Source: Eledone cirrhosa (lineage: Eukaryota). Taken from it: 64,000 nt of DNA. The stretch lies in contig OZ024742.1 of the NCBI GenBank assembly GCA_964016885.1, positions 203,732,001-203,796,000 of the forward strand, written 5' to 3'. The notes beneath the pieces are model-generated. The model was not told where the DNA came from. It ran no database searches and worked only from the letters and a program-made list of their open reading frames with translations. A program made the translations under genes and the position numbers. Shown here one piece after another: positions 5,605 to 62,994 of this stretch. Position 1 is the stretch's first letter. Each line of letters begins with the position of its first letter.

Positions 5605-8600
5605 TGTCACTGTCACTGTCTCGCACCCACAGTGTCACTCTCCTTGTCTCCCACCCACAGTGTCACTGTCACTGTCTCGCACCCACAGTGAACTCTCCCT
5701 GTCTCCCACCCAGTGTCACTCTCCCTGTCTCCCATCCACAGTGTCACTCTCCCTGTCTCACACCCACAGTGTCACTCTCCCTGTCTCCCACCCACAGTGT
5801 CACTGTCACTGTCTCGCACCCACAGTCACTCTCCCTGTCTCCAACCCACAGTGTCACTCTCCCTGTCTCCAACCCACAGTGTCACTGTCACTGTCTCGCA
5901 CCCAGAGTGTCACTCTCCCTATCTCGCACCCACAGTGTCACTCTCCCTGTCCCCCACCCACAGTGTCACTATCACTGTCTCCCACACTACCACTGTCCCT
6001 GTCCCCCACACTACCACTGTCCCTGTCCCTCAGACTACCACAGTCCCTGTCCCCCACACTACCACTGTCCCTGTCCCCCACACTACCACTGTCCCTGTCT
6101 CCTACACTATCACTGTCCCTGTCTCCCACACTACCACTGTCCCTGTCCCCCACTACCACAGTCCCTGCCCCCACACTATCACTGTCCCTGTTCCCCCACA
6201 CTACCACTGTCCCTGTTCCCCACACTACCACAGTCCCTGTCCCCCACACTACCACTGTCCCTGTCTCCCACACTACCACTGTCCCTGTCTCCCACACTAC
6301 CACTGTCCCTGTCCCCCACACTACCACTGTCCCTGTCCCCCACACTACCACTCGCCCTATCCCCCACACTACCACTGTCCATGTCCCCCACACTACCACT
6401 GTCCCTGTCCCCTACACTACCACAGTCCCTGTCCCCCACACTACCACTGTCCCTGTCTCCCACACTACCACTGTCCCTGTCCCCCACTACCACAGTCCCT
6501 GCCCCCACACTATCACTGCCCCTGTCCCCCACACTACCACTGCCCCTGTCCCCTACACTACCACTGTCCCTGTCCCCCACACTACCACTGTCCCTGTCAC
6601 CCACACTACCACTGTCCCTGTCTCCCACACTACCACTGTCCCTGTCCCCCACACTACCACTGTCCCTGTCCCCCAAACTACCATTGTCCCTGTCCCCCAC
6701 ACTACCACTGTCCCTGTCCCCCACACTAGCACTGTCCCTGTCCCCCAAACTACCACTGTCCCTGTCTCCCACACTACCACTGTCCCTGTCCCCCACACTA
6801 TCACTGCCCCTGTCCCCTACACTACCACAGTCCATGTTCCCCACACTACCACTGTCCCTGTCCCCCACACTACCACTGTCCGCTACACTACCACTGTCCC
6901 TGTCCCCCACACTGCTACTGTCCCTGTCCCCTACAATACCACTGTCCCTGTCCCCCACACTGCTACTGCCCCTGTCCCCTACACTACCACTGTCCCTGTC
7001 CCTCACACTACCACTGTCCCTGTCCCCTACACTACCACTGTCCCTATCCCCCACACTACCACTGTCCCTGTCCCCCACACTACCACTGTCCCTGTCCCCC
7101 ACACTACCACTGTCCCTGTGCCCACACTACCACAGTTCCTGCCCCCCACACTACCACAGTCCCTGTCCCCCACTCTACCACTGTCCCTGTCCCCCACACT
7201 ACCACTGTCCTGTCCCCTACACTACCTCTGTCCCTGTCCCCCACACTACCACTGTCCCTATCCCCCACACTACCACTGTCCCTGTCCCCCACACTACCAC
7301 TGTCCCTGTCCCCCGCAGTAGCATAGTCCCTGTCCCTCACACTACCACCGTCCCTGTCCCCTACACTACCACTGTCCCTTTCCCCTACACTACCACTGTC
7401 CCTGTCCCCCACACTACCACTGTCCCTGTCCCCCACACTACCACTGTCCCTGTCCCCCACACCACCACTGTCCCTGTCCCCCCACACTACCACTGTCCCT
7501 GTCCCCCACACTACCATTGTCCCTGTCCCCCACACTACCACTGTCCCTGTTCCCCTACACTACCACTGTCCCTATGCCCCACATTACCACAGTCCCTGTC
7601 CCCCACACTACCACTGCCCCTGTCCCCATCACTACCACAGTCCCTGTCCCCCACACTACCACTGTACCTGTCCCCCACACTACCACTGTCCCTGCCCCTC
7701 ACACTACCACAGTCCCTGTCCCCCACACTACCACAATCCCTGTCCCCCACACTACCACAATCCCTGTCCCCCACACTACCACTGTCCCTGTCCCCCACAC
7801 TACCACCGTCCCTGTCCCCCCCACACTACCACTGTCCCTGTCCCCACACTACCACAGTCCCTGTCCCCCACACTACCACTGTCCCTGTCCCCCACACTAC
7901 CACTGTCCCTGTCCCCCACACTGCCACTGTCCCTGTCCCCCACACTACCACAGTCCCTGTCCCCCACACTACCACTGTCCCTGTCCCCCACACTGCCACT
8001 GTCCCTGTCCCCCACACTACCACAGTCCCTGTCCCCCACACTACCACTGTGCCTGTCCCCCCACACTACCACTGTCCCTGTCCCCCACACTACCACTGTC
8101 CCTGTCCCCCACACTACCACTGTCCCCTACACTACCACAGTCCCTGCCCCCCACACTACCACAGTCCCTGTCCCCCACACTACCACTGTCCCCCACACTA
8201 CCACTGTCCCTGTCCCCCACACTGCTACTGTCCCTGTCCCCTACAATACCACTGTCCCTGTCCCCCACACTACCACTGTCCCTGTCCCCCACACTGCTAC
8301 TGCCCCTGTCCCCTACACTACCACTGTCCCTGTCCCTCACACTACCACTGTCCCTGTCGGCCACACTACCACTGTCCCTGTCCCCCACACTACCACAATC
8401 CCTGTCCCCCACATTACCACTGTCCCTGTCCCCCACACTACCACTGACCCTGTACCCCACACTACCACTGTCCCTGTCCTCCACACTACCACTGTCCCTG
8501 TCCCCCACTACCACAGTCCCTGCCCCCACACTATCACTGTCCCTGTTCCCCCACACTACCACTGTCCCTGTTCCCCCACACTACCACAGTCCCTGTCCCC

Positions 8601-11600
8601 CACACTACCACTGTCCCTGTCTCCCACACTACCACTGTCCCTGTCTCCCACACTACCACTGTCCCTGTCCCCCACACTACCACTGTCCCTGTCCCCCACA
8701 CTACCACTGTCCCTGTCTCCCACACTACCACTGTCCCTGTCCCTCACTACCACAGTCCCTGCCCCCACACTATCACTGTCCCTGTCCCCCACACTACCAC
8801 TGTTCCTGTCCCCCACACTACCACTGTCCCTGTCCCCCACTACCACAGTCCCTGCCCCCACACTATCACTGTCCCTGTCCCCCACACTACCACTGTCCCT
8901 GTCCCCCACACTAGCACTGTCCCTGTCCCCCAAACTACCACTGTCCCTGTCTCCCACACTACCACTGTCCCTGTCCCCCACACTACTACTGTCACTGTCC
9001 CCCACACTACCACTGTCCCTGTCCCCCACACTACCACTCGCCCTATCCGCCACACTACCACTGTCCCTGTCTCCCACACTACCACTGTCCCTGTCCCCCA
9101 CTACCACAGTCCCTGCCCCCACACTATCACTGTCCCTGTTCCCCCACACTACCACTGTTCCTGTCCCCCACACTACCACTGTCCCTGTCCCCCACACTAG
9201 CACTGTCCCTGTCCCCCAAACTACCACTGTCCCTGTCTCCCACACTACCACTGTCCCTGTCCCCCACACTATCACTGCCCCTGTCCCCTACACTACCACA
9301 GTCCATGTTCCCCACACTACCACTGTCCCTGTCCCCCACACTACCACTGTCCCCTACACTACCACTGTCCCCGTCCCCCACACTGCTACTGCCCCTGTCC
9401 CCTACAATACCACTGTCCCTTTTCCCCACACTACCACTGTCCCTGTCCCCCACACTGCTACTGCCCCTGTCCCCTACAATACCACTGTCCCTTTTCCCCA
9501 CACTACCACTGTCCCTGTCCCCCACACTGCTACTGTCCCTGTCCCCTACAATACCACTGTCCCTTTTCCCCACACTACCACTGTCCCTGTCCCCCACACT
9601 GCTACTGCCCCTGTCCCCTACACTACCACTGTCCCTGTCCCTCACACTACCACTGTCCCTATCCCCCACACTACCACTGTCCTTTTCCCCCACACTACCA
9701 GTGTCCCTATCCCCCACACTACCACTGTCCCTGTCCCCCACACTACCACTGTCCCTGTCCCCCACACTACCACTGTCCCTATCCCCCACACTACCACTGT
9801 CCCTGTCCCCCACACTACCACTGTCCCTGTCCCCCACACTACCACTGTCCCTGTCCCCCACACTGCTACTGCCCCTGTCCCCCACACTACCACTGTCCCT
9901 ATCCCCCACACTACCACTGTCCCTGTCCCCCACACTACCACTGTCCCTATCCCCCACACTACCACTGTCCCTGTCCCCCACACTACCACTGTCCCTGTTC
10001 CCCACACTACCACTGTCCCTGTCCCCCACACTACCACTGTCCCTATCCCCCACACTACCACTGTCCCTGTCCCCCACACTACCAGTGTCCCTATCCCCCA
10101 CACTACCACTGTCACTGTCCCCCACACTACCACTGTCCCTGTCCCCCACACTACCACTGTCCCTGTCCCCCACACTACCACTGTCCCTGTCCCCCACACT
10201 ACCACTGTCCCTGTCCCCCACACTACCAGTGTCCCTATCCCCCACACTACCACTGTCCCTGTCCCCCACACTACCACTGTCCCTATCCCCCACACTACCA
10301 CTGTCCCTGTCCCCCACACTACCACTGTCCCTGTCCCCCACACTACCAGTGTCCCTATCCCCCACACTACCACTGTCCCTGTCCCCCACACTACCACTGT
10401 CCCTATCCCCCACCCTACCACTGTCCCTGTCCCCCACACTACTACTGTCCCTGTCCCCCACACTACCACTGTCCCTGTCCCCCGCACTAGCATAGTCCCT
10501 GTCCCTCACACTACCACAGTCCCTGTCCCCCCACACTACCACTGTCCCTGTCCTCCACTCTACCACTGTCCCTGTCCCCATACACTACCACTGTCCCTGT
10601 CCCCCACACTACCACAGTCCCTGTCCCCCACACTACCACTGCCCCTGTCCCCCACACTACCACCTTCCCTGTCCCCTACACTACCACTGTCCCTGTCCCC
10701 TACACTACCACTGTCCCTGTCCCCCCACACCACCACTGTCCCTGTCCCCCCACACTACCACTGTCCCTGTCCCCCACACTACCATTGTCCCTGTCCCCCA
10801 CACTACCACTGTCCCTGTCCCCCACACTACCACTGTCCCTGTCCTCCACACTACCACTGTCCCTGTCCCCCCACACTACCACTGTCCCTGTCCCCCACAC
10901 TACCATTGTCCCTGTCCCCCACACTACCACTGTCCCTGTCCCCCACACTACCATTGTCCCTGTCCCCCACAATACCACTGTCCCTGTCCTCCACACTACC
11001 ACTGTCCCTGTCCCCCACACTACCATTGTCCCTGTCCCCCACACTACCACTGTCCCTGTCCCCCACACTACCACTGTCCCTGTCCCCCCACACTACCACT
11101 GTCCCTGTCCCCCACACTACCACTGTCCCTGTCCTCCACACTACCACTGTCCCTGTCCCCCCACACTACCACTGTCCCTGTCCCCCACACTACCACTGTC
11201 CCTGCCCCCCACACTACCATTGTCCCTGTCCCCCACACTACCACTGTCCCTGTCCTCCACACTACCACTGTCCCTGTCCCCCACACTACCATTGTCCCTG
11301 TCCCCCACACTACCACTGTCCCTGTCCCCCACACTACCACTGTCCCTGTCCCCCACACTACCACTGTCCCTGTCCTCCACACTACCACTGTCCCTGTCCC
11401 CCCACACTACCACTGTCCCTGTCCCCCACACTACCACTGTCCCTGTACCCCACACTACCATTGTCCCTGTCCCCCACACTACCACCGTCCCTGTCCCCTA
11501 CACTACCACTGTCCCTGTCCCCTACACTACCACTGTCCCTGTCCCCCCACACCACCACTGTCCCTGTCCCCCCACACTACCACTGTCCCTGTCCCCCACA

Positions 11601-14600
11601 CTACCATTGTCCCTGTCCCCCACACTACCACTGTCCCTGTCCCCCCACACTACCACTGTCCATGTGCCCACACTACCACAGTTCCTGCCCCCCACACTAC
11701 CACAGTCCCTGTCCCCCACTCTACCACTGTCCCTGTCCCCCACACTACCACTGTCCTGTCCCCTACACTACCACTGTCCCTGTCCCCCACACTACCACTG
11801 TCCCTATCCCCCACACTACCACTGTCCCTATCCCCCACACTACCACTGTCCCTGTCCCCCCACACTACCACTGTCCCTGTCCCCCGCAGTAGCATAGTCC
11901 CTGTCCCTCACACTACCACTGTCCCTTTCCCCTACACTACCACTGTCCCTGTCCCCCGCAGTAGCATAGTCCCTGTCCCCCCACACTACCACTGTCCCTG
12001 TCCCCCCACACCACCACTGTCCCTGTCCCCCCACACTACCACTGTCCCTGTCCCCCACACTACCATTGTCCCTGTCCCCCACACTACCACTGTCCCTGTT
12101 CCCCTACACTACCACTGTCCCTATGCCCCACACTACCACAGTCCCTGTCCCCCACACTACCACTGCCCCTGTCCCCATCACTACCACAGTCCCTGTCCCC
12201 CACACTACCACTGTCCCTGTCCCCCACACTACCACTGTCCCTGCCCCTCACACTACCACAGTCCCTGTCCCCCACACTACCACAATCCCTGTCCCCCACA
12301 CTACCACAATCCCTGTCCCCCACACTACCACTGTCCCTGTCCCCCACACTACCACCGTCCCTGTCCCCCCACACTACCACTGTCCCTGTCCCCACACTAC
12401 CACAGTCCCTGTCCCCCACACTACCACTGTCCCTGTCCCCCACACTACCATTATCCCTGTCCCCCCACACTACCACTGTCCCTGTCCCCCACACTAGCAC
12501 TGTCCCTGTCCCCCACACTACCACAGTCCCTGTCCCCCACACTACCACTGTCCCTGTCCCCCCACACTACCACTGTCCCTGCCCCCCACACTACCACTGT
12601 CCCTGTCCCCCACACTACCACTGTCCCCTACACTACCACAGTCCCTGCCCCCACACTACCACAGTCCCTGTCCCCCACACTACCACTGTCCCTGTCCCCC
12701 CACACTACCACTGTCCCTGTCCCCCACACTACCACTGTCCCTGTCCCCCACACTACCACTGTCCCTGTCCCCCACACTACCACTGTCCCTGTCTCCCACA
12801 CTACCTCAATCCCTGTCCCCCACACTACCACTGTCCCTGTCCCCCACACTACCACTGTCCCTGTCCCCCACACTACCACTGTCCCTGTCCCCCACACTAC
12901 CATTGTCCCTGTCCCCCACACTACCACTGTCCCTGTCCCCCACACTACCACTGCCCCTGTACCCCACACTACCACAATCCCTGTCCCCCACACTACCACT
13001 GTCCCTGTCCCCCACACTACCACTGCCCCTGTCCCCCACACTACCACAATCCCTGTCCCCCACACTACCACTGTCCCTGTCCCCCACACTACCACTGCCC
13101 CTGTACCCCACACTACCACTGTCCCTGTCATCCACACTACCACTGTCCTGTCATCCACACTACCACTGTCCCTGTCCCCCACACTACCACTGTCCCTGTC
13201 CCCCACACTACCACTGTCCCTGTCCCCCACACTACCACTGTCCCTGTCCCCCACACTACCACTGTCCCTGTCCCCCACACTACCACTGTCCCTGTCCCCC
13301 ACACTACCACAGTCCCTGTCCCCTACACTACCACTGTCCCTGTCCCCCACACTACCACTGTCCCTATCCCCCACACTACCACTGTCCCTGTCCCCCACAC
13401 TACCACTGTCCCTGTCCCCCACACTACCACTGTCCCTGTCCCCCACACTACCACTGTCCCTGTCCCCCACACTACCACTGTCCCTGTCCCCCGCACTAGC
13501 ATAGTCCCTGTCCCTCACACTACCACAGTCCCTGTCCCCCCACACTACCACTGTCCCTGTCCTCCACTCTACCACTGTCCCTGTCCCCTACACTACCACT
13601 GTCCCTGTCCCCTACACTACCACAGTCCCTGTCCCCCACACTACCACTGCCCCTGTCCCCCCACACTACCACCGTCCCTGTCCCCTACACTACCACTGTC
13701 CCTTTCCCCTACACTACCACTGTCCCTGTCCCCCCACACCACCACTGTCCCTGTCCCCCCACACTACCACTGCCCCTGTCTCCCACACTACCACCGTCCC
13801 TGTCCCCTACACTACCACTGTCCCTGTCCCCCACACTACCACAGTCCCTGTCCCCTACACTACCACTGTCCCTTTCCCCTACACTACCACTGTCCCTGTC
13901 CCCCCACACCACCACTGTCCCTGTCCCCCCATACTACCACTGTCCCTGTCCCCCACACTACCACTGTCCCTGTCCCCCGCACTACCACTGTCCCTGTCCC
14001 CCACACTACCACTGTCCCTGTCCCCCACACTACCACTGTCCCTGTTCCCCTACACTACCACTGTCCCTATGCCCCACACTACCACAGTCCCTGTCCCCCA
14101 CACTACCACTGCCCCTGTCCCCATCACTACCACAGTCCCTGTCCCCCACACTACCACTGTCCCTGTCCCCCACACTACCACTGTCCCTGTCCCCCACACT
14201 ACCACTGTCCCTGCCCCTCACACTACCACAGTCCCTGTCCCCCACACTACCACTGTCCCTGTCCCCCACACTACCACAATACCTGTCCCCCACACTACCA
14301 CTGTCCCTGTCCCCCACACTACCACTATCCCTGTCCCCCACACTACCACTGTCCCTGTCCCCCACACTACCACAGTCCCTGTCCCCCACACTACCACTGT
14401 CCCTGTCCTCCACACTACCACTGTCCCTGTCCCCCACACTACCACTGGCCCTATCCCACTGTCCCTGTCCCCCCACACTACCACTGTCCCTGTCCTCCAC
14501 ACTACCACTGTCCCTGTCCCTCACACTACCACTGTCCCTGTCCCCCACACTACCACTGTCCCTGTCCCCCACACTATCACTGTCCCTGTCCCACACACTA

Positions 14601-16873
14601 CCACTGTTCCTGTCCCTGTCCTCCACACTACCACTGTCCCTGTCCCCCCACACTACCACAGTCCCTGTCCCCCACACTACCACTGTCCCTGTCCTCCACA
14701 CTACCACTGTCCCTGTCCCCCACACTACCACTGTCCCTGTCCCTCACACTACCACTGTCCCTGTCCCCCACACTACCACAGTCCCTGTTCCCCACACTAC
14801 CACTGTCCCCGTCCTCCACACTACCACTGTTCCTGTCCCCCACACTATCACAGTCCCTGTCCCCCACACTACCACTGTCCCTGTCCTCCACACTACCACT
14901 GTCCCTGTCCCCCCACACTACCACAGTCCCTGTCCCCCACACTACCACTGTCCCTGTCCTCCACACTACCACTGTCCCTGTCCCCCACACTACCACAGTC
15001 CCTGTCCCCCACACTACCACTGTCCCTGTCCCCCACACTACCACTGTCCCTGCCCCTCACACTACCACAGTCCCTGTCCCCCACACTACCACTGTCCCTG
15101 TCCCCCACACTACCACAATCCCTGTCCCCCACACTACCACTGTCCCTGTCCCCCACACTACCACTATCCCTGTCCCCCACACTACCACTGTCCCTGTCCC
15201 CCACACTACCACAGTCCCTGTCCCCCACACTACCACTGTCCCTGTCCTCCACACTACCACTGTCCCTGTCCCCCACACTACCACTGGCCCTATCCCCCAC
15301 ACTACCACTGTCCCTGTCCCACACACTATCACTGTCCCTGTCCCACACACTACCACTGTCCCTGTCCCTGTCCTCCACACTACCACTGTCCCTGTCCCCC
15401 CACACTACCACAGTCCCTGTCCCCCACACTACCACTGTCCCTGTCCTCCACACTACCACTGTCCCTGTCCCCCACACTACCACTGTCCCTGTCCCTCACA
15501 CTACCACTGTCCCTGTCCCCCACACTACCACAGTCCATGTTCCCCACACTACCACTGTCCCTGTCCTCCACACTACCACTGTCCCTGTCCCCCACACTAC
15601 CATTGTCCCTGTCCCCCACAATACCACTGTTCCTGTCCTCCACACTACCACTGTCCCTGTCCTCCACACTACCACTGTCCTGTCCCCCACACTACCACTG
15701 TCCCTGTCCCCCCACACTACCACTGTCCCTGTCCCTCACACTACCACTGTCCCTGTCCCCCACACTACCACTGTCCCTGTCCCCCCACACTACCACTGTC
15801 CCTGTCCCCTACACTACCACTGTCCCTGTCCCCCCACGCCACCACTGTCCCTGTCCCCCCACACTACCACTGTCCCTGTCCCCCCACACTACCACTGTCC
15901 CTGTTCCCCACACTACCACTGTCCCTGTCCCTCACACTACCACAGTCCCTGTCCCTCACACTACCACTGTCCCTGTCCTCCACACTACCACTGTCCCTGT
16001 CCCTCACACTACCACAGTCCCTGTCCCTCACACTACCACTGTCCCTGTCCCCCACACTACCACTGTACCTGTCCCCCACACTACTACTGTCCCTGTCCCC
16101 CACACTACCACTGTCCCTGTCCCCCACACTACCAGTAGTCCCTGTCCCCCATACTACCACTTTCCCTTCCCCCACACTACTACTGTCCCTGTCCCCCACA
16201 CTACTACTGCCCTTGTCCCCCCACACTACCACTGTCCCTGTCCCCCACACTACTACTGTCCCTGTCCTCCCACTACCACTCTCCCTATCCCCCACACTAC
16301 CACTGTCCCTGTCCCCCACACTACCACTGTGCCTGTCCCCTACACTACCACTGTCCCTGTCCCCACACTACCACTGTGCCTCTCCCCTACACTACCACTG
16401 TCCCTATCCCCCACACTACCACTGTCCTTTTCCCCCACACTACCAGTGTCCCTATCCCCCACACTACCACTGTCCCTGTCCCCCACACTACCACTGTCCC
16501 TGTCCCCTACACTACCACAGTCCCTGTCCCCCACACTACCACTGTCCCTGTCCCCCACACTACCAGTGTCCCTGTCCCCCTCACTACCAGTGTCCCTGTC
16601 CCCCACACTACCACTGTCCCTGTCCCCCACACTACCACTGTCCCTGCCCCCCACACTGCCACTGTCCCTGTCCCCCACACTACCACTGTCCCTGTCCCCC
16701 ACACTACCACTGTCCCTGTCCCCCACACTACCACTGTCCCTGTCCCCCACACTACCACTGTCCTTGTCCCCCACACTACCACTGTCCCTGTCCCCCACAC
16801 TACCACTGTCCCTGTCCCCCACGCTACCACTGTCCTTGTCCCCCACACTACCACTGTCCCTGTCCCCCTCACT
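5605..16873. repeat. Giant GC-skewed minisatellite, 24-bp unit CCCACACTACCACTGTCCCTGTCC
   Basis: Direct tandem array of ~11.3 kb. The first ~370 bp use a related 25-27 bp unit (cacccacagtgtcactctccctgtctc). Frequent +/-1-2 bp indels and recurring variant blocks are present. Confidence 0.98.
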
Positions 16874-17009: not shown

Positions 17010-17570
17010 ACTCCTGTGTGTGTATATATATGTGACCATTCTTCTCTCCCCTTCTACCTCCCTATTTCGCCACTTTCTACTCTCACCCCTCTTTCTTCCC
17101 CTCCCTTTCTCCCTATCTACTCTCACCCCACTTTCTTCCTCTCCCTTTCTCCCTCTCACTTTCACCCCCTCGTCTGGTCGTTTAGCAGTTCTCTTCTCAC
17201 TTAAAACTGCGGCGATCGGACGTGTGTTGTTCCTCTCGACCACTCAGTCTTGAACTTAAGTTCTCTTATCGAGTGGTCTTAGATTTCCTACCTATAGTTG
17301 CTCGCACATTGCTCGGTTTCTTTGTTACTGTTTCTCTTTTCTTTCCCTTTGCTTTCCTTCCCTCCTTCCTTCGTTTTCCTAATAACTTATCCAGTTATTG
17401 ACGCCCTGGGGTGAGGTATCTTGTCTTTAAAGCGTAGAAATATCCGAGCCCCCCAGTAGACAACTGATGATGAAAACTCCCCCGCCCCCTCTGTTCTTGT
17501 TTTCTTCGTATTCCCACTGCATTTTAAGTTACCTTAAATAGCAACTACACAGCCATTTCTATTTTCCATA
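17010..17570 (+). mobile_element. Putative PLE terminal repeat (pLTR) fragment, same family as 26491-27280
   Basis: Shares ataactt..attgacgc..ttgtctttaa..gcgt.gaaat..ccag.agacaactga and the upstream CT-rich/cggcg segment with 26491-26900. It ends in (TA)n. Confidence 0.6.
17400..17472 (+). ncRNA. Non-circularly permuted hammerhead ribozyme candidate
   Basis: Strand order is GGUAU-C-UUGUCU (17415-17426), then GAAA-UAUC (17437-17444), then AGACAA-CUGAUGA (17458-17470). Extra helices are CUGGGG/CCCCAG and ACGC/GCGU. Confidence 0.7.
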
Positions 17571-17611
17571 TATATATATATGACAAGTTTTGAAACAGCG
17601 GGCGAGTTTGA

Positions 17612-17763
17612 AAGTAGAAATAGAAGCTTTCGCCATATTTCTTACTAAAGAATTTTTAGCCTGATAGTGGAGTTTAGAACCCTCTAAGAAGTGGAAAAAG
17701 ATGAGTATTGACGTACATGTACGTCAATACTCATCTTTTTCCATTTCTTACGGCGAAAGTTTC

Positions 17764-26182: not shown

Positions 26183-26519
26183 CATAATACGTGTTTAAAA
26201 GAATATAGAGTAAGTTAGTACAAAGGTTGAATAAAATATATATAATACAATATAGTTTGTTAAAGGTAATACATTGCACATTTAAGTTTCATGCCAAGCA
26301 AAATGCTAAGCAATCATCAGGTAATAAACATAAACCTTCTACAAAAATATCCACGCAACGAATTTTCCGGTATTATATTCTGGGTTAAAATCTTTGTAAG
26401 ACCATCAAATATTTGAGACATATCGATATCATTTGAGACATATCGATATCATTCCTTGCTTAGTTAAAATGATTTTATATATATATATATAAGGAAAGCA
26501 CAAACGGGGAACAATCCCT

Positions 26520-26590
26520 TCCTCAGTTGTCTGCTGGAGATCAAGGACATTTCAACGCATTAAAGACAATATGTCTAACTCCAGTGCGTC
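26520..26590 (-). ncRNA. Non-circularly permuted hammerhead ribozyme candidate (intact copy)
   Basis: GACGCA-CUGGAG-uua-GACAU-A-UUGUCU-uuaa-UGCGUU-GAAA-UGUC-cuugau-CUCCAG-c-AGACAA-CUGAGGA. Confidence 0.72.
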
Positions 26591-27144
26591 AATATCTTGT
26601 GGAAGTTATTGAGGAGAGAAAGAAAAAAATAAACAGAAGGGAAAAAAGGAAAAGAAGGAAAAAGTGCCGAGAACATACCGAAAGGAAGGGGGAACGAGGA
26701 GGGCACATGTATGTATGTAAGTAACCGGAGGATAGAGAGAGAGAAGTCAAAACTGCTATTGAACATAAGTCTGAGGCTTTTATTGACAACGAGATAGGGA
26801 GAGTGAAGAAAACACGTCTAACCTCGGCGGGTGTAGGCGAAAAGAGGCAGAGAGAAGAGAAGACGGAAGTAGTAGGGGAGCAAAGAGAAAAAGAGTAAAA
26901 GTGAGAGGGAGATGGGGAGAGAGAGGGAGATGGGGCGAGAGAGACAGAGAGAGAGAGAGAGAGAGAAAGGGAGAAAAGGAAAGAAAGAAAAAGAATCTCC
27001 CGGTTACTTACATACATACATGTGCTCTCCTCGTGTTCCCCCCTTTTCGGTATGTTCTGAGTTTTTTTTTTCTTTTTTTTTTCCCCCTTCTGTTTAATTT
27101 TTTCTTTCTCTCCTTTTTTTTCCAAATAACTTCCACAAGATATT

Positions 27145-27215
27145 GACGCACTGGAATTAGACATATTCTATTTAATGCGTTCAAATGTCTGTGATCTCCA
27201 ACAGACAACTGAAGA
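27145..27215 (+). ncRNA. Decayed copy of the permuted hammerhead
   Basis: Same layout as 26520-26590, but GAAA is changed to CAAA and stem I is mutated. Confidence 0.5.
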
Positions 27216-27287
27216 CGGGATTGTCCCCCGTTTGTGCTTTCCTTTTATTTTTAAATGCACTTTAGCAAGTAACCACACATATATATA

Positions 27288-27440
27288 TAACGAAGGAAGT
27301 GTGGTAAGGAACCAGATGGACCATAACGCACCAGAGTACTCAATATTTAGGGTAGTAGAGTGGGTAATAGGAATAGGAGTCCAGAAATAGTCATCGAAAC
27401 GGCTTGAGCTCTGCCGTCGGGGTCTTGAACTTTTCCTATA
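27288..27440. mobile_element. Ultra-short inverted insertion carrying the 3' half of an HHR
   Basis: gaaacggcttgagctctgccgtcggggtc plus an inverted tail. Homologues occur at 18975-19030, 34033-34085, 39522-39575, 54516-54707 and 60905-61035. Confidence 0.75.
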
Positions 27441-27451
27441 TCTATATCTAT

Positions 27452-27674
27452 AGTAATAATAATAAATTTGAAGACTAAAATCCAAAGAGGGCTCGATAAG
27501 GATAAATATATATCAAATATATAAGAACCGTAGAGCAAATATTTATTAAAATAACAGATTAAAGTTTAACCAAAGAATCGCTGCTTTCACCCTTAACGGG
27601 ATCTTCTGAAACTAGTTTCAGAAGATCCCATTAAGGGTGAAAGCAGGGATTTTTGCTTAAACTTTAATCTGTTA

Positions 27675-27682
<8 letters not shown>
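27452..27682. mobile_element. Palindromic 3'-end insertion of the Naiad family at 54722-57610
   Basis: Arms meet at aaact|agttt (27613/27614). The sequence matches 57541-57605 and 62631-62881. Confidence 0.85.
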
Positions 27683-27741
<59 letters not shown>

Positions 27742-40174: not shown

Positions 40175-40735
40175 TAAACAAATAATGAACAAACAATTCC
40201 TTATATTAAACAAAAAAAGTTCACTATTTAACGATCGTTTCTAGGGCATATATGTGTTATAATTGGTATGCATATTTAACAGATCTATGTACAAAATTAT
40301 ACAAAATTATACAAATTATCAAGATTAAATATACATACCTAACTCATATATACGCCGTCTTCAGAAATAATGTATTATAAAATATTATAAAATAAAATAT
40401 TTCTGAAGACGGCGTATATATGAGTTAGGTATGTATATTTAATCTTGATAATTTGTATAATTTTGTATAATTTTGTACATAGATCTGTTAAATATGCATA
40501 CCAATTATAACACATATATGCCCTAGAAACGATCGTTAAATAGTGAACTTTTTTTGTTTAATATAAGGAATTGTTTGTTCATTATTTGTTTAATATTTTA
40601 TCTTGACTCTGTATACCATTTATCTTTCACCGAAAGTGGATTTTCATTACATCTCTTCTTTCCATAATATCCGGAATACATTGAGTTCTTCATACGGATT
40701 GGACACTACCGTAAACTCTTGGTAGATTTATCTAC
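40166..40735. mobile_element. Palindromic PLE-terminal insertion with HHRs
   Basis: ~200-bp near-perfect arms at 40167-40369 and 40398-40600, with a 135-bp tail on the plus arm. It is absent from the left arm of the large duplication. Confidence 0.85.
40398..40542 (+). ncRNA. Type I hammerhead with ~100-nt stem II insert (mirror copy at 40225-40369)
   Basis: UAUUU-CUGAAGA-c-GGCGUAUAU...AUAUAUGCC-cua-GAAA-CGAUCG-UU-AAAUA. Confidence 0.65.
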
Positions 40736-44377: not shown

Positions 44378-47300
44378 CAGTTGCATTTATCTTGCTTTAT
44401 GTTCATACGAGTTATCACCAAGTCACAACCAGTGACCTCAAGAGACAACAAGGTCCGCCATATTCAAGGAAGAACATACATATTCACACATGCATCTTTA
44501 GTGTTTAGACTTGTGATGTACTTATATTGACAGAATCTTCCTTAGTATATGGGCAGTTCCCATTAGTACTATCTTTTGTATTTCTCCTATACGCGGGTTT
44601 CCTGGGATTTGCGATAAGTAATCATTAGGCCCCTTAGGTATCATTCCCAGAGCGCCTACAACCACTGGTATTGTTTTAGTTCTCAATTTCCACATTTTTC
44701 CAATTTCTATCTCCAGGTCCTTATACTTGCTCAGTTTTTCAAATGTTTTTATAGATACATTCTTGTCTATTGGAACAGACATATCAATTAGCAGGCATAC
44801 CCTCTTTTGAAAGTCTTTCAATATTATATCAAGTCTGTTTGCATCTATTTTTCGGTCTGTTTGGATGCTAAAGTTCCACAAGATTGAAATGTGATCTTTT
44901 TCAAGTATGGGAGGTGGTTGATGCTCCCACCAATTCTTTTGATGGGGCAGGTCAAAATGCTTACACATTATCCAATGTATGTATTGTGCAGCTCTGTCAT
45001 GCATGTTTAGGTATTCGGTTGGAGCTATAGGACTGCACATTGAAATTATATGGTCAATGGTCTCTGGTTGTTTTTTGCATACACGGCATAATGGGCTGCA
45101 TCCATTTTTTATTATGTTGGCTTGGTAATTTTTTGTTGGCAGACACTGATCTTGTGCCGATATAATCAGTCCTTCAGTCTCCGATTTCAGTCCAGAGGAT
45201 GCCAACCACTGATGGGTTAAAGTTTTGTCAACATCAGGATTGTTAGCTCGCTCTGGGTATTTTCCATACAGAGGCTTTTCTTGCCATTTCTTAGCGAGTT
45301 TCTGTAGCAGTTCTTTCTTTGCGGTTACTTTTACCTGCTTTGCTTTTTCTGTGTTTTCCATTTCAGCAGTAAATGGGACTTCTGAAATTTGTAGTCCATT
45401 ACTGTATCTTTGTGCATCTTTTGTAATGGAATATGATCTTTTGATGCTTTCGTGTTTCAAAACGAGTTTGATCATCCAATCATGTGATTCCCTTAGATAT
45501 GTAGATAATCCAATTGTTGCAGTTTTCAACGCAATGTCTAACTGGATTAACCCACGTCCTCCTTCTTTCCTAGGGAGATATATTCTATCTATATCTGCCT
45601 TAGGGTGATGCATTCTGTGCATGGTTAAGAATTTTCGAATTTTTGTATCGAGCCTACGGATCTCTGTGCTTGACCAGTTGATGACATTGTAACTGTAGGT
45701 TACTACTGGTATGGCAAGCGTCTTTATGGCATCGATCCTATTCCTTGCATTCAATTCCGTTCTTAAGATTGCTCTTACTCTGCGGTAACATTCCTTCTTT
45801 ATCCTTTCCCTCATTGTCGAGTGCTTGATTCCGTCTCCTTCACAAACACCTAGATATTTGTAAGTTTTTTTCTTGATCAAGTTCTCTTATCACGTTCCCC
45901 CGATCAAGATTAATGTCTGAACTCTTCAGCAGCTTTCCTCTGGTGAACGTTGCTTTGGCGCATTTATCTAGTCCAAACTCCATTTTAATGTCATCACTGA
46001 ACTGCTTCACAGTGGATAATAGCCCTTGCAATTGTTCATCATTTTTTGCAAATAGTTTCAGGTCATCCATGTAGATCAGGTGATTAATGGTTTTGTCATA
46101 GACTTTATATCCATGTTTTGTTTCATTGAGCATTTTACTTAATGGTATAAGTACGATGCAGAATAAAAGCGGTGATAAAGAGTCACCCTGAAAAATTCCA
46201 CAATTAATATTAACTTCTCCAGCTTCCAGTGATTTTGTTTCACTATTCAAAAGGAGTGTCGTTTTCCATGTCTTCATACTGAATGACAAAAACCTCATGA
46301 CAACGGGGGATATTTTGAAAATCTCTAAACATTTTTCAATCCAACTGTGTGGCAGACTATCAAATGCTTTTTTATAATCTATCCAAGCAATCGATAGATT
46401 TTTGTGTCTATTATGACAATCTTCCAGTATCATTTTGTTAACCAGAAGCTGATCCTTACAGCCATATGAGCCTCGTTTACACCCTTTCTGCTCAATGGGA
46501 AATAGGTCATTTGTTATCAGGTGGTCATATGTGTATTCAGTTAGGACTGATGTTAAAATTTTATACATTGTGGTCAAGCAAGTTATCGGTCTGTAATTTT
46601 TTGGATTGTTTGTCTCATCATTCTTCGGAAGCAGGAATGTAATGCCGTTAATTAGCCATGAAGGTATCTTTTCTGGCTCCTTAACTATTTCATTGTAAAG
46701 TTGGGCTAACAGCTCATGAGACTCTGTGAAGTTTTGTATTTTGTCTTTTCCTGGGGATTTCCATTTGCTGGTTTTTCTTAGAGCCAAGCGCAACTGTTCA
46801 ACTGTTATATTTTCCCATGTTTGTTCCTCAGGTGAGCTGTATCTTTCATTTGTCTGTCTATCCATGGGGCATGTATGTTATGAACTTTTTCTTCGGCCCA
46901 GATCTTTTCCCAGAATTCTTGCACTTCCTCCTTGGGTGGTATTGATTTAGCAGTTATTGTTGACTTACCAATTTTTCTGTAGAAGTTTCTTTGGTTGTTT
47001 TTGAACATATTATTGTCCTTATAGAATCTAGATCGTTTTTCAAAGCGCCTTATACGAGCAGCTTTGGCCGACACTTTTTGCTTGATTATTTCTATCAGCA
47101 TGTCTATGTCACATGTTGATTTTATACTGTACTTTTTTTTCAATTTTCTAAGTTTAGTTTGTTTAACATGTTCACCTACTTTATAGTTTGTTAAAATTTC
47201 TATGTCAGATCGGAGAAGGTTTATTTGGCGATTGATGTTCTCTTGCCAAGTAGATTTCTTGTGGGAATTCCTTTGTTTTTTCATCTTCACTCCACATAAG

Positions 47301-48029
47301 TGAGTGGTGACTTTAGCCGATGCATAATAGAGATGATTTAAATCAGTAATGTTTAGTTTGTTTGTGATGATAATGTTTTTGAGAATTATGTTAGTCTTGT
47401 GTATTATCTTTTGGTTCTGTTTGGAGTTCTGGATCTTAGGGAGGGTGTCTCGTTGCCCCATGTCAGATTCTTTCATTTTCATCCATTCGATCATAATTTC
47501 ATCCTTCAAGTTGGCAAGTTCATTCTCATTCATTTCTTTATCATTTACGATCTCATTATTTTCATTTGGAGTTTCATCCTGAGCATGCACTCCCTCCACT
47601 TTTTCGATCCTTTCTTTAATTTGTTCTGTTGCCAGTGATTCCGCCCCAACCCTGGGATTCGAAGTGTTACAGTTTACCTCGTTTTCACTGACACATGTTT
47701 CATTTTCCCTTCGCTGACTTTGTGCTAATAGCTTGATCTGATCAATTTCTATATCAGTTAGTATCTTTTTTCTTACAATATTTCTTCGTATACTGGCTAG
47801 TTTGTTACTGTCAATATAGCCTCTGTTTTCGGGATGTTTCTTTTTCCAGTTGATATATGTCTGTTCTGTATTCGATGTATTTGATGGGTAGTACATGGCA
47901 GTGTAGAAAGCCTCACGGACTTCTTTATTATCTTCCCTTGACCATTTTTCTCTCTTTTTCTTTGGATTTCTTGGTGGTGAGCATGGAGGGCCAACAGTAG
48001 GAGTATTCCGGCTCCGAAGTGATGGGAAG
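44378..48029 (-). mobile_element. Near full-length R4/Dong-clade LINE (RT plus RLE endonuclease), frameshifted
   Basis: REKWSREDN N-terminus; YRPITCL, WIDYKKAFDS, GIFQGDSLSP, YMDDLKL; CRVC..ETIDHIISMC..HD; RLDIIL..LIDMSVP. Flanked by (TAA)n on both sides. Confidence 0.93.
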
Positions 48030-48088
<59 letters not shown>

Positions 48089-48758
48089 TCTTTGAGTCTC
48101 AGTCATTGATGTTAGTTAACTGGAAAGTTTGTTAAAATGAATATCAAGTCACTACCTGCAGCCTCAGATATTGAGGACGTATCGGAGGGTTCTTGCTGTT
48201 CCCAGCAAGCATGCCTTTTGGAGCGTTCCAAAAAGCGTGAAGGGGCCAATTTTCTTTAAGCATCCCTGGAAACTTTTTGAGATAGTCCCTAGTGCGCCTA
48301 TGACAATCGGGATCACCCTGATTTCATGGCAGTTCCAAATCCTTTTTACCTCCCACTTTAAGTCCTGGTATCGGTTAATTTTCTCCCTCTCCTTCTCTTG
48401 CACTCTCGTGTCGAATGGGCAGGCGACATCCACAATCAGGCACGATCTTTTTTCTTTGTCCAAAACCACCAGGTCAGGTCTATTGTGTTCCAGTTTCTTG
48501 TCCGTCTGTATCCTAAAATCCCACAGCACCTTCACCTGATCGTTTTCTATCACCACCTCTGGCTTATGCTCATACCACTTCTCAGAATGTGGTAAATTGT
48601 TTACTTTGCATAGGTGCCAGTCGATCACCCTGCCCATCACATCATGTCTCCAGCCCTTATAGTGAGTCTGGGCTAGGTGTTTACACTCGGATACAATGTG
48701 AGCCACAGTCTCCTCTCTCTCTCCACAGATCCTGTACAGTGGGCTAGCCTCCTCCTTG
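48089..48758 (-). mobile_element. 5'-truncated second R4/Dong-family LINE
   Basis: CRIC..ETVAHIVSEC..RHD, NRPDLVV..IVDVACP, K..RYQDL, PIVIGALG. Flanked by (TAA)n and (TAA/CAA)n. Confidence 0.9.
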
Positions 48759-48791
48759 TAAATTATTATTATTATTATTATTGTTATTATT

Positions 48792-48846
<55 letters not shown>

Positions 48847-49815
48847 TTGTTGTTGTTGTTGTTGTATTTAGGTCGGTAGTATTGAAGTATTTCTCCGCAT
48901 GTTTGTGGTGTAATTTGCTCTCTTTTTGTGGATTAGGAGCTGATTGGTTTTAATTTATATGTGGCCGGTAAGGGTTAAATCAGAACCTTTTTGAAAATTA
49001 CAACAAAAACATTTGTTTTGAACAACAAGGCGGATGAACCAATGCCGTCCGCAGAATGTAACAGCCCAAGTGAAAAAAAAAAGAAAAAAGAACTAACATC
49101 AAGGCACAAGGCACGCACATACGAAAACGACTTCCCAGCATTGAAATAAACGGACAATCTCGCGACGTCTACTGCTACCACTACCAGTACAACACAAAAG
49201 GTCCAACACAGGCTCAAAACAACAACATCACCACCAGTACCACTAAAACAACAACAACACCAATGACAAGAACTGCAATACGAACGGCAAAAAAACACAT
49301 TCGCTGCTAGAGCTGCTAAAACTACTGAACTCTTCCAAATGAGCATTGCACAGAAGGACATACGTTTAGCATAAGCAGCCAAATTGATCACAATATAAAT
49401 AGGCATGGGTCAACGTTAGCGTTCCGCCCGAGGTGTTTAAAAGCTACGAAGAGAAAACGTTAATTTACAGATGTATTTCGACAAAATAAAGAAAAGAAAG
49501 AATCTAGTGCCACAATATAACGTGAGAACAGTTCTCAAAGGAATCATACTGGACATTCATCATGTTGCAAAAGCCAAACAGTTTGGGAACATTTCGATGC
49601 TCTTCGAGAGTAAAGCCCATGCCATAAAACACTGTGGTTCCCTGCAAAACAGACCAATATATATTGGTCCCATGTTATTTGGAAAGAAAAAGAATTTAAG
49701 TCGGCATTTTCGGAATCCCACCAAAGTTAGACATCTGAAGGAAGCTGGAGAGTAACAAAACCCACCTGGATGTAAAAAGAACCCAGGGTTAAAACTGGTT
49801 TGGGATCAGTTTATA

Positions 49816-62237: not shown

Positions 62238-62584
62238 TGTCAACTCTGGATGTCGGTGAGCATGTCCAGCCAACCTCAGTCTCCTCTGTGTCACTTTTGA
62301 GCTGACTTTTGGGATGCTCCCATACAACTCTGAGTTTTTCATCCTCAGTGTATACTGATTAATGTTCAGAGCCATCCTCAGCATTCTCGTGTAGCACCCA
62401 TCATGTAGCCCCATCATGTAGCCCCTACATGGACACACTAGACGAGGAAGACCAAGGTTAATATATGTTGATGCCCTAAGGACAGACACTGGTCTGTTGG
62501 AGATGCAGGATATGGCAGCGATAATGAGGGACAGAGACCGCTGGAGAGAACTCGTCCATGGATCTCGGGAATTTTACCCGCCTT

Positions 62585-62586
<2 letters not shown>
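62237..62586. mobile_element. RTE-type LINE 3' end with 5' inversion (same family as 25438-25830)
   Basis: Minus arm DGCYTRMLRMAL...HRHPELT and plus arm [13 protein letters not shown]...FYPP*, followed directly by (AT)n. Confidence 0.85.

Positions 62587-62994
<408 letters not shown>

Follow-up and report, generated by a model that had tools for sequence, protein, structure and literature searches.

The window and its predicted ribozyme copies

The window, by which is meant the whole 64,000-nucleotide stretch of Eledone cirrhosa DNA analysed here, carries three copies of a hammerhead-like motif, designated A, B and C (Table 1). In copies A and B, all of the conserved hammerhead core bases (CUGAnGA, GAAA and the UH site) are present, and the core is flanked by covarying stems I and III. 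The core strands lie where the original prediction had placed them, on the minus strand in copy A and on the plus strand in copy B, and their order is likewise the one it had proposed: the block that holds the cleavage site (S) is followed by the GAAA block (G) and then by the CUGAnGA block (C), which is not the circular order C-G-S of hammerhead types I, II and III. The cut positions predicted by analogy with known hammerheads, 3′ of A17 in copy A and 3′ of C17 in copy B, also coincide with those given previously.

A generic descriptor consisting of the S-G-C order and paired stems I and III matches the window twice, at copies A and B, while in 100 shuffled windows it averaged 0.04 matches, with no window matched twice. 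Together with the genome-wide pattern controls described below, this rules out a chance origin of the motif. Copy C, which forms a head-to-head pair with copy A, is indeed the decayed third copy that it had been taken for: a C at 27182 replaces G12, and both stem I and the interaction helix keep four of their six pairs.

The extent first assigned to copy A, 26520-26590, proved too short, and the two helices contributed by the leader and tail and by hairpin P0 had been missed. The two extra helices that had been described alongside the core are both present in copy A, where 26584-26579 pairs with 26539-26534 and 26589-26585 pairs with 26559-26555.

Table 1. Positions of the predicted ribozymes, their parts and the insertions that carry them in the window
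Feature	Position	Strand	Remarks
Copy A, whole predicted ribozyme	26511-26619	minus	Intact core, one mismatch in P0; covariance-model match of 114.6 bits
Copy A, 5′ leader	26612-26615	minus	Partner is the 3′ tail (helix IIa)
Copy A, hairpin P0	26591-26610	minus	
Copy A, strand X	26579-26590	minus	G at the 10.1 place, then stem II 5′ side (26589-26585), then stem I-II interaction helix 5′ side (26584-26579)
Copy A, block S	26564-26575	minus	Stem III 3′ strand (26575-26571), U16.1, A17 (26570), stem I 5′ strand (26569-26564)
Copy A, predicted cut	between 26570 and 26569	minus	By analogy with hammerheads
Copy A, block G	26546-26559	minus	11.x strand, GAAA (26553-26550; G12, A13, A14, A15.1), stem III 5′ strand
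Copy A, interaction helix 3′ side	26534-26539	minus	
Copy A, block C	26520-26532	minus	Stem I 3′ strand (stem I′, 26532-26527), CUGAGGA (26526-26520)
Copy A, 3′ tail after A9	26515-26519	minus	Pairs with the leader, not with 11.x
Insertion carrying copy A	26478-26974	minus	5′-truncated, non-coding, retrozyme-like, ends in a (TA)n run; extent by BLAST against other genomic copies
Inverted head-to-head partner insertion (carries copy C)	26996-27279	plus	About 91% identical to A; about 35 nt of extra 3′ sequence before (AT)n
Copy C, decayed ribozyme	27116-27224	plus	G12 changed to C, stem I and interaction helix broken; predicted inactive
Copy B ribozyme, second subfamily	17372-17479	plus	Intact core; C17 at 17420, cut predicted 3′ of 17420
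Insertion carrying copy B	17031-17581 (ends approximate)	plus	TA runs on both flanks

Several other repeats share the window. A 24-nt satellite of about 455 copies, with about 61% GC and a strong C skew, occupies 5967-16873 and stops about 150 nt before the insertion that carries copy B. Palindromic or inverted-repeat elements lie at 17683-17756, 27437-27740, 40327-40440 and 62599-62786, and the one at 27437-27740 is found again in many loci and at 62584-62896. On the minus strand, 44522-48949 contains broken frames that are likely the remains of a non-LTR retrotransposon; its RVT_1 fragment at 45843-46877, far from the ribozyme motif, was the sole match among the six window frames tested.

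Six helices and a proposed split core

The motif is predicted to fold into six helices: a leader/tail helix (IIa), hairpin P0, stem II between strand X and the 11.x strand, an interaction helix between strand X and the strand preceding stem I′, stem III and stem I. When more genomic copies were aligned and a covariance model was built, as the original prediction had advised, the covariation persisted. A model-based alignment brought together 60 matches taken from 50 selected sources, representing 55 distinct copies. In these, pairing across the six helices reaches 90.4%, compared with 29-50% in slid controls, and 22 of 35 pairs have changed on both sides; this alignment is biased toward the four nested helices of its model, from which stems I and II were left out, and the copies are related, so that they may surpass shuffles without any structure and the two-sided counts amount to a handful of subfamily events. 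An independent MAFFT alignment of 42 copies, hand-picked from 93 to cover the subfamilies, is 91% paired, with two-sided changes in 13 of 34 pairs.

Taken singly, stem I is 96.1% paired with five of six pairs changed on both sides, even though it is absent from the aligning model. The corresponding values are 95% and three of five pairs for stem III, 93.9% and three of seven for hairpin P0, 93.5% and five of six for the interaction helix, and 81.5% and four of five for helix IIa. Stem II is 81% paired with two-sided changes in two of six pairs, its covariation coming mostly from one pair. At the 10.1-equivalent position, 21 of the 55 copies have a non-standard pair.

Compensatory changes had been claimed between copies A and B at three places. 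Those in stem III and in the extra helix stand, but the A-U to U-A exchange at 10.1-11.1 does not: it depends on a U found in 3 of 30 central matches of family B, nearly all of the rest having G opposite A. The same holds for the helix to which that pair was assigned. A canonical stem II, continuing straight from A9 by pairing of 10.x with 11.x, is paired in 38% of cells, inside the slid-control range of 24-45%, and was rejected; the 11.x strand pairs instead with the strand at the 5′ end.

An ordinary type SGC hammerhead, in which stem II is reduced to the single pair 10.1-11.1 and the helices of the leader, P0 and strand X are peripheral, would account for the 34 of 50 cells in which that column pair is standard, and for one subfamily that has C11.1 together with G10.1, the fixed SGC letters of Eckert et al. 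being carried by 26 of 198 places. Yet of the three positions that follow, two are hardly ever paired (10 of 55 and 1 of 54 cells), leaving the helix at control level, and family B presents G opposite A. Furthermore, covariation links the tail to the leader and 11.x to strand X, and the pairing between strand X and 11.x extends over 5-6 bp in the Naiad ends read from the supplement of PMC8557442. An SGC ribozyme with a one-pair stem II is thus quite improbable.

The preferred fold therefore has stem II built from strand X. Helix IIa and hairpin P0 meet the core and stem II with 0-3 unpaired bases, an arrangement that we read as a putative four-way junction. The nested folding energy is unremarkable (z of −0.85 to −1.6) and the best nested fold of copy A is a competing structure; such a lack of support from nested folding is expected when the fold is pseudoknotted.

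An abundant non-coding repeat

Across the 3.0 Gb genome searched, a first BLAST pass yielded 1,236 candidates for copy A and 1,928 for copy B, 40 of each being scored. A pattern that fixes the stem I of A and B occurs at 1,814 places and at none in a reversed control, and one that fixes only the linker, part of 11.x, GAAA and CUGAnGA occurs at no fewer than, that is at least, 17,059 places against one in the control. The motif nevertheless escapes a standard search, as had been foreseen: no hammerhead family appears among the best 150 of 195 Rfam matches at E ≤ 5. A metagenome scan for the ribozyme returned 24 matches, all 24 chance-like, the best scoring 19.3 bits.

Conservation was assessed at places found by a pattern in which the UH site and stem I are unfixed and one base of stem III is fixed. 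The 100 matches listed first of the 17,059 represent 96 distinct places, 89 of which have an intact leader; among these, stem I is kept at 87, stem III at 85 and the UH site at 84.

Family A is the older, with a median nearest-neighbour identity of 0.92 over about 190 nt. Families D-F are younger, at 0.96-0.98 and up to 0.995. Between distant subfamilies the monomer bodies align at 0.45-0.55, compared with 0.47-0.56 for shuffled sequence; the ribozyme region reaches 0.54-0.68, modestly above shuffled, a rough figure since the upstream ribozyme is truncated in three of the seven references.

Each monomer contains one ribozyme. In head-to-tail tandems the ribozymes are spaced 470-644 nt apart, with one spacing of 1,453 nt, and tandems or inversions occur at 24 of 90 loci, of which two overlap, the inversions being nearly all head-to-head. 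A separate locus, L181 (G000:C1:25329790-25331875), has four tandem ribozyme copies spaced 654-706 nt apart. The longest Met-started frames of six monomers are 48-141 aa, showing these to be non-coding. Monomers sit in (TA)n; their 3′ ends cluster about 50-170 nt past the cut site, mostly running into microsatellites, while their 5′ ends are scattered.

Proposed mechanism and evidence for catalysis

Together, these observations make it quite probable that an abundant non-coding monomer carries, once per unit, an S-G-C hammerhead motif whose A9 and stem II are separated by a predicted four-way junction, and that this motif likely cuts itself 3′ of NUH; its probable ancestor is the 3′ end of a Naiad, a Penelope-like element (PLE). 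In the mechanism proposed here, strand X would contribute first to stem II and next to the helix in which stems I and II interact, in the manner of the strand that follows CUGAnGA in the SGC and CSG hammerheads of Eckert et al. The backbone would be open between A9 and 10.1, with both ends clamped by the leader/tail helix and hairpin P0. Tandem or read-through transcripts would be cut into monomer-length RNAs, possibly circularised, and these could be reverse-transcribed at (TA)n sites by a PLE acting in trans, which would give rise to the 5′-truncated tandems and inversions. For copy A, which is older, the chances that it can still cut are about evenly balanced.

When 96 places were sampled without bias, no excess of copy 5′ ends was seen at the cut site (3 against 4, p = 0.40). 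An apparent footprint, with 15 of the 17 breaks in the interval −41 to +7 lying at −11 to +7, came from a biased sample and was dropped after the unbiased one, and eight family D 5′ ends at +6 were an artefact of the reference edge.

A real fold that has lost catalysis, and persists because a reverse transcriptase recognises it or primes from it, would agree with a genome that bears no trace of cutting, with the weakness of the 10.1-equivalent pair in many copies, and with a split core that is without precedent in the literature examined. It is difficult to reconcile, however, with the retention of CUGAnGA, GAAA and UH across subfamilies while all of the helices change, or with an H17 that is A or C, as cleavage requires, at 84 of the 89 places. 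The same core also persists in the Naiad consensus ends read from PMC8557442, whose hosts are cnidarians, an acanthocephalan, a crustacean and cephalopods. We accordingly give a purely structural role little chance.

Still less credible is an active form in which at least two copies supply strands in trans to build a classical hammerhead. Animal retrozymes do include dimeric hammerheads (PMC7229834), and tandems are common in the present family. Nevertheless, four more covarying helices bind the blocks inside one copy, and reading over tandem copies yields the order C-S-G, which is still non-classical; trans assembly is very improbable.

Probable relationship to Naiad elements

Craig et al. 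2021 (PMC8557442) describe Naiads as lacking a canonical hammerhead, and flag nine Naiad records as 'core' and eight as 'half core'. Inspection by eye of consensus 3′ regions in the supplement, covering part of its 54 Naiad records, reveals the six-helix wiring in nine: Naiad_Amil, Aacu, Anas, Movir-2, Plae, EuTe, Obim, Ovul and Esco. The letters of their helices are unrelated, and eight of the nine have G-C at the pair formed by the 10.1 equivalent and 11.1. The junction is free of unpaired bases in Amil, Plae and EuTe, where a 6-bp stem II opens with a G-C pair; the wiring of Aacu and Esco includes mismatches, and the leader/tail helix is short in Obim and Ovul. No split-core wiring was seen by eye in the 3′ region of Ppla or in the visible end of Omin. 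Within the nematode part of File S5 (PMC8557442), five 3′ regions can be read as type CSG with full stems I, II and III, three of them from Nippostrongylus Naiads and the other two from neighbouring records.

Two further records from the same supplement differ in kind. The 3′ region of Naiad-1_Movir has letters that resemble the blocks of Eckert's twister ribozyme alignment. The record before Naiad_EuTe has GAAA upstream of CUGAnGA and a tail that may pair with 11.x, and is possibly a plain SGC.

On the strength of these sequence comparisons, a Naiad retroelement is the likely source, through its 3′ end, of the window repeat. No Naiad came to light in the genome itself. Six exact patterns for Naiad RT or DKA motifs gave no match for five and, for the sixth, one match against two in the control, a search that decayed or divergent elements would escape. 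A pattern for the Octopus Naiad ribozyme found none, nor did the best GIY-YIG matches (30 loci and 20 long-frame loci, of 150 scored). A frame combining an N-terminal GIY-YIG with RT, as in Naiad, is absent from the monomer and from the surroundings of 12 multi-ribozyme loci, and the Naiad RT motif had no match in viral contigs. Ribozyme pairs 3.65 kb apart, considered as full-length Naiads, turned out to be a duplicated region with a fragment of a C-terminal-endonuclease PLE between them.

In all of the long GIY-YIG frames examined, the endonuclease is C-terminal, and by their motifs we take these PLEs to be Neptune/Poseidon-like. L121, L122 and L123 (G000, C1 and C5) have open frames of 938, 844 and 1096 aa, respectively, each combining RT with a C-terminal GIY-YIG, and these three PLEs are candidate mobilisers. 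Type I hammerheads occur at L100, L123, L127, L130 and L136, and TA runs follow the type I hammerheads of the PLEs.

The presence of these 844-1096 aa frames and the TA runs, the absence of Naiad motifs from the genome by exact patterns, and the youth of subfamilies D-F (identity as given above) would each be compatible with a ribozyme of the described kind that arose separately and rides on the host's C-terminal-endonuclease PLEs. This alternative concerns the origin and mobiliser only. Against it, the six-helix wiring, the linker and several letters match the Naiad ends read from the supplement, and convergence on all of these is unlikely; moreover, decayed or divergent Naiads escape exact patterns, and Naiad descent with later mobilisation by another PLE fits both data sets. 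A separate origin is therefore unlikely, if less so than the alternatives weighed above, and descent from Naiad is retained.

Comparison with known systems

Eckert et al. 2023 (PMC10085705) know the SGC class only from metatranscriptomes and metagenomes, plus one bacterial candidate, and form its stem II and interaction helix from the strand right after CUGAUGA(U)G. Block C is taken there as indivisible, CUGAnGA being inseparable from stem II. Only two CSG sequences are known, of which CSG-1 cleaves in vitro. PMC13725137 cites Eckert et al. and mentions hammerhead variants with extra helices. Across open-licence PMC and bioRxiv literature, subscription journals lying largely outside this coverage, no description was found of a hammerhead with its core opened between A9 and 10.1, none of permuted hammerheads placed in Naiads or retrozymes, and none of the rearranged hammerheads near invertebrate PLEs that the original prediction had mentioned.

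The published classes help to place the split-core motif. SGC, CSG and GCS are openings of one circle, and the split-core motif would be a further circular permutant: with its strand for stem II and the interaction helix at the 5′ end, it would correspond to a break between A9 and 10.1, within block C. With type SGC (HRIMA-1 and the SGC variant, PMC10085705), it has in common the S-G-C order, the core bases, stems I and III, a pseudoknot and a helix joining stems I and II. The suggested comparison with published rearranged hammerheads thus bears out the block order, whereas the topology of stem II departs from SGC. There, block C is intact and the stem II strand lies 3′ of CUGAUGA(U); in the window family the strand for both stem II and the interaction helix lies at the 5′ end, and the tail pairs with the leader. 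The published SGC examples also come from metatranscriptomes, whereas the window family is found in genomic DNA, at more than 17,000 places in an animal-type genome. With type CSG, from the same source, the window family shares the circle of helices, an interaction strand that directly adjoins the stem II strand, a 6-bp stem I and a 5-nt linker from stem I to 11.x/stem II, the helix order and the linker being those of CSG-1; the break in CSG, however, lies where stem III meets the interaction helix, which leaves block C whole, and there is no four-way junction.

We consider it probable, though with less assurance than for the ribozyme and its descent, that this topology, with its A9/stem II opening and four-way junction, is undescribed; that split-core and CSG ribozymes are the ones missing from Naiads, making permuted hammerheads common in animal genomes; and that the retrozyme at more than 17,000 places may have outlived its Naiad parent by way of another PLE clade. 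If so, the assumption that CUGAnGA cannot be separated from stem II would be broken by a natural split-core hammerhead, and non-circular permutations would gain a defined retroelement context in place of unknown hosts. It would also overturn the view in PMC8557442 that ribozymes are dispensable for the success of Naiads, a view from which it had been argued that hammerheads may be no more than parasites of PLEs. The split-core family would go undetected in current retrozyme surveys based on type I descriptors.

Naiads, for their part, have the same predicted ribozyme in the nine consensus 3′ ends, and the element in the window codes for no protein. As insertion marks, Craig et al. (PMC8557442) list (TA)n targets, 5′ truncation, partial tandems, an adjacent inverted copy and a 30-40 bp tail. 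The window family likewise has (TA)n as its target, is truncated at the 5′ side, inserts in tandem and in inverted orientation, and ends in a 3′ tail; such marks are also seen in other PLE clades and are nonspecific.

Non-LTR retrozymes (Cervera and de la Pena 2020, PMC7229834; Li et al. 2026, bioRxiv 10.64898/2026.07.22.740005) resemble the window family in their non-coding monomers with one hammerhead each, in their tandem and dispersed copies, in low GC and in a proposed dependence on PLEs. They are defined, however, by type I hammerheads and monomers of about 300 nt (PMC7229834), whereas the window family combines short non-coding tandem monomers of 470-644 nt with a single permuted hammerhead. 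The split-core motif would therefore appear to work like an SGC or CSG hammerhead while departing from SGC in its stem II, and to be organised like a retrozyme while departing from retrozymes in its type of ribozyme.
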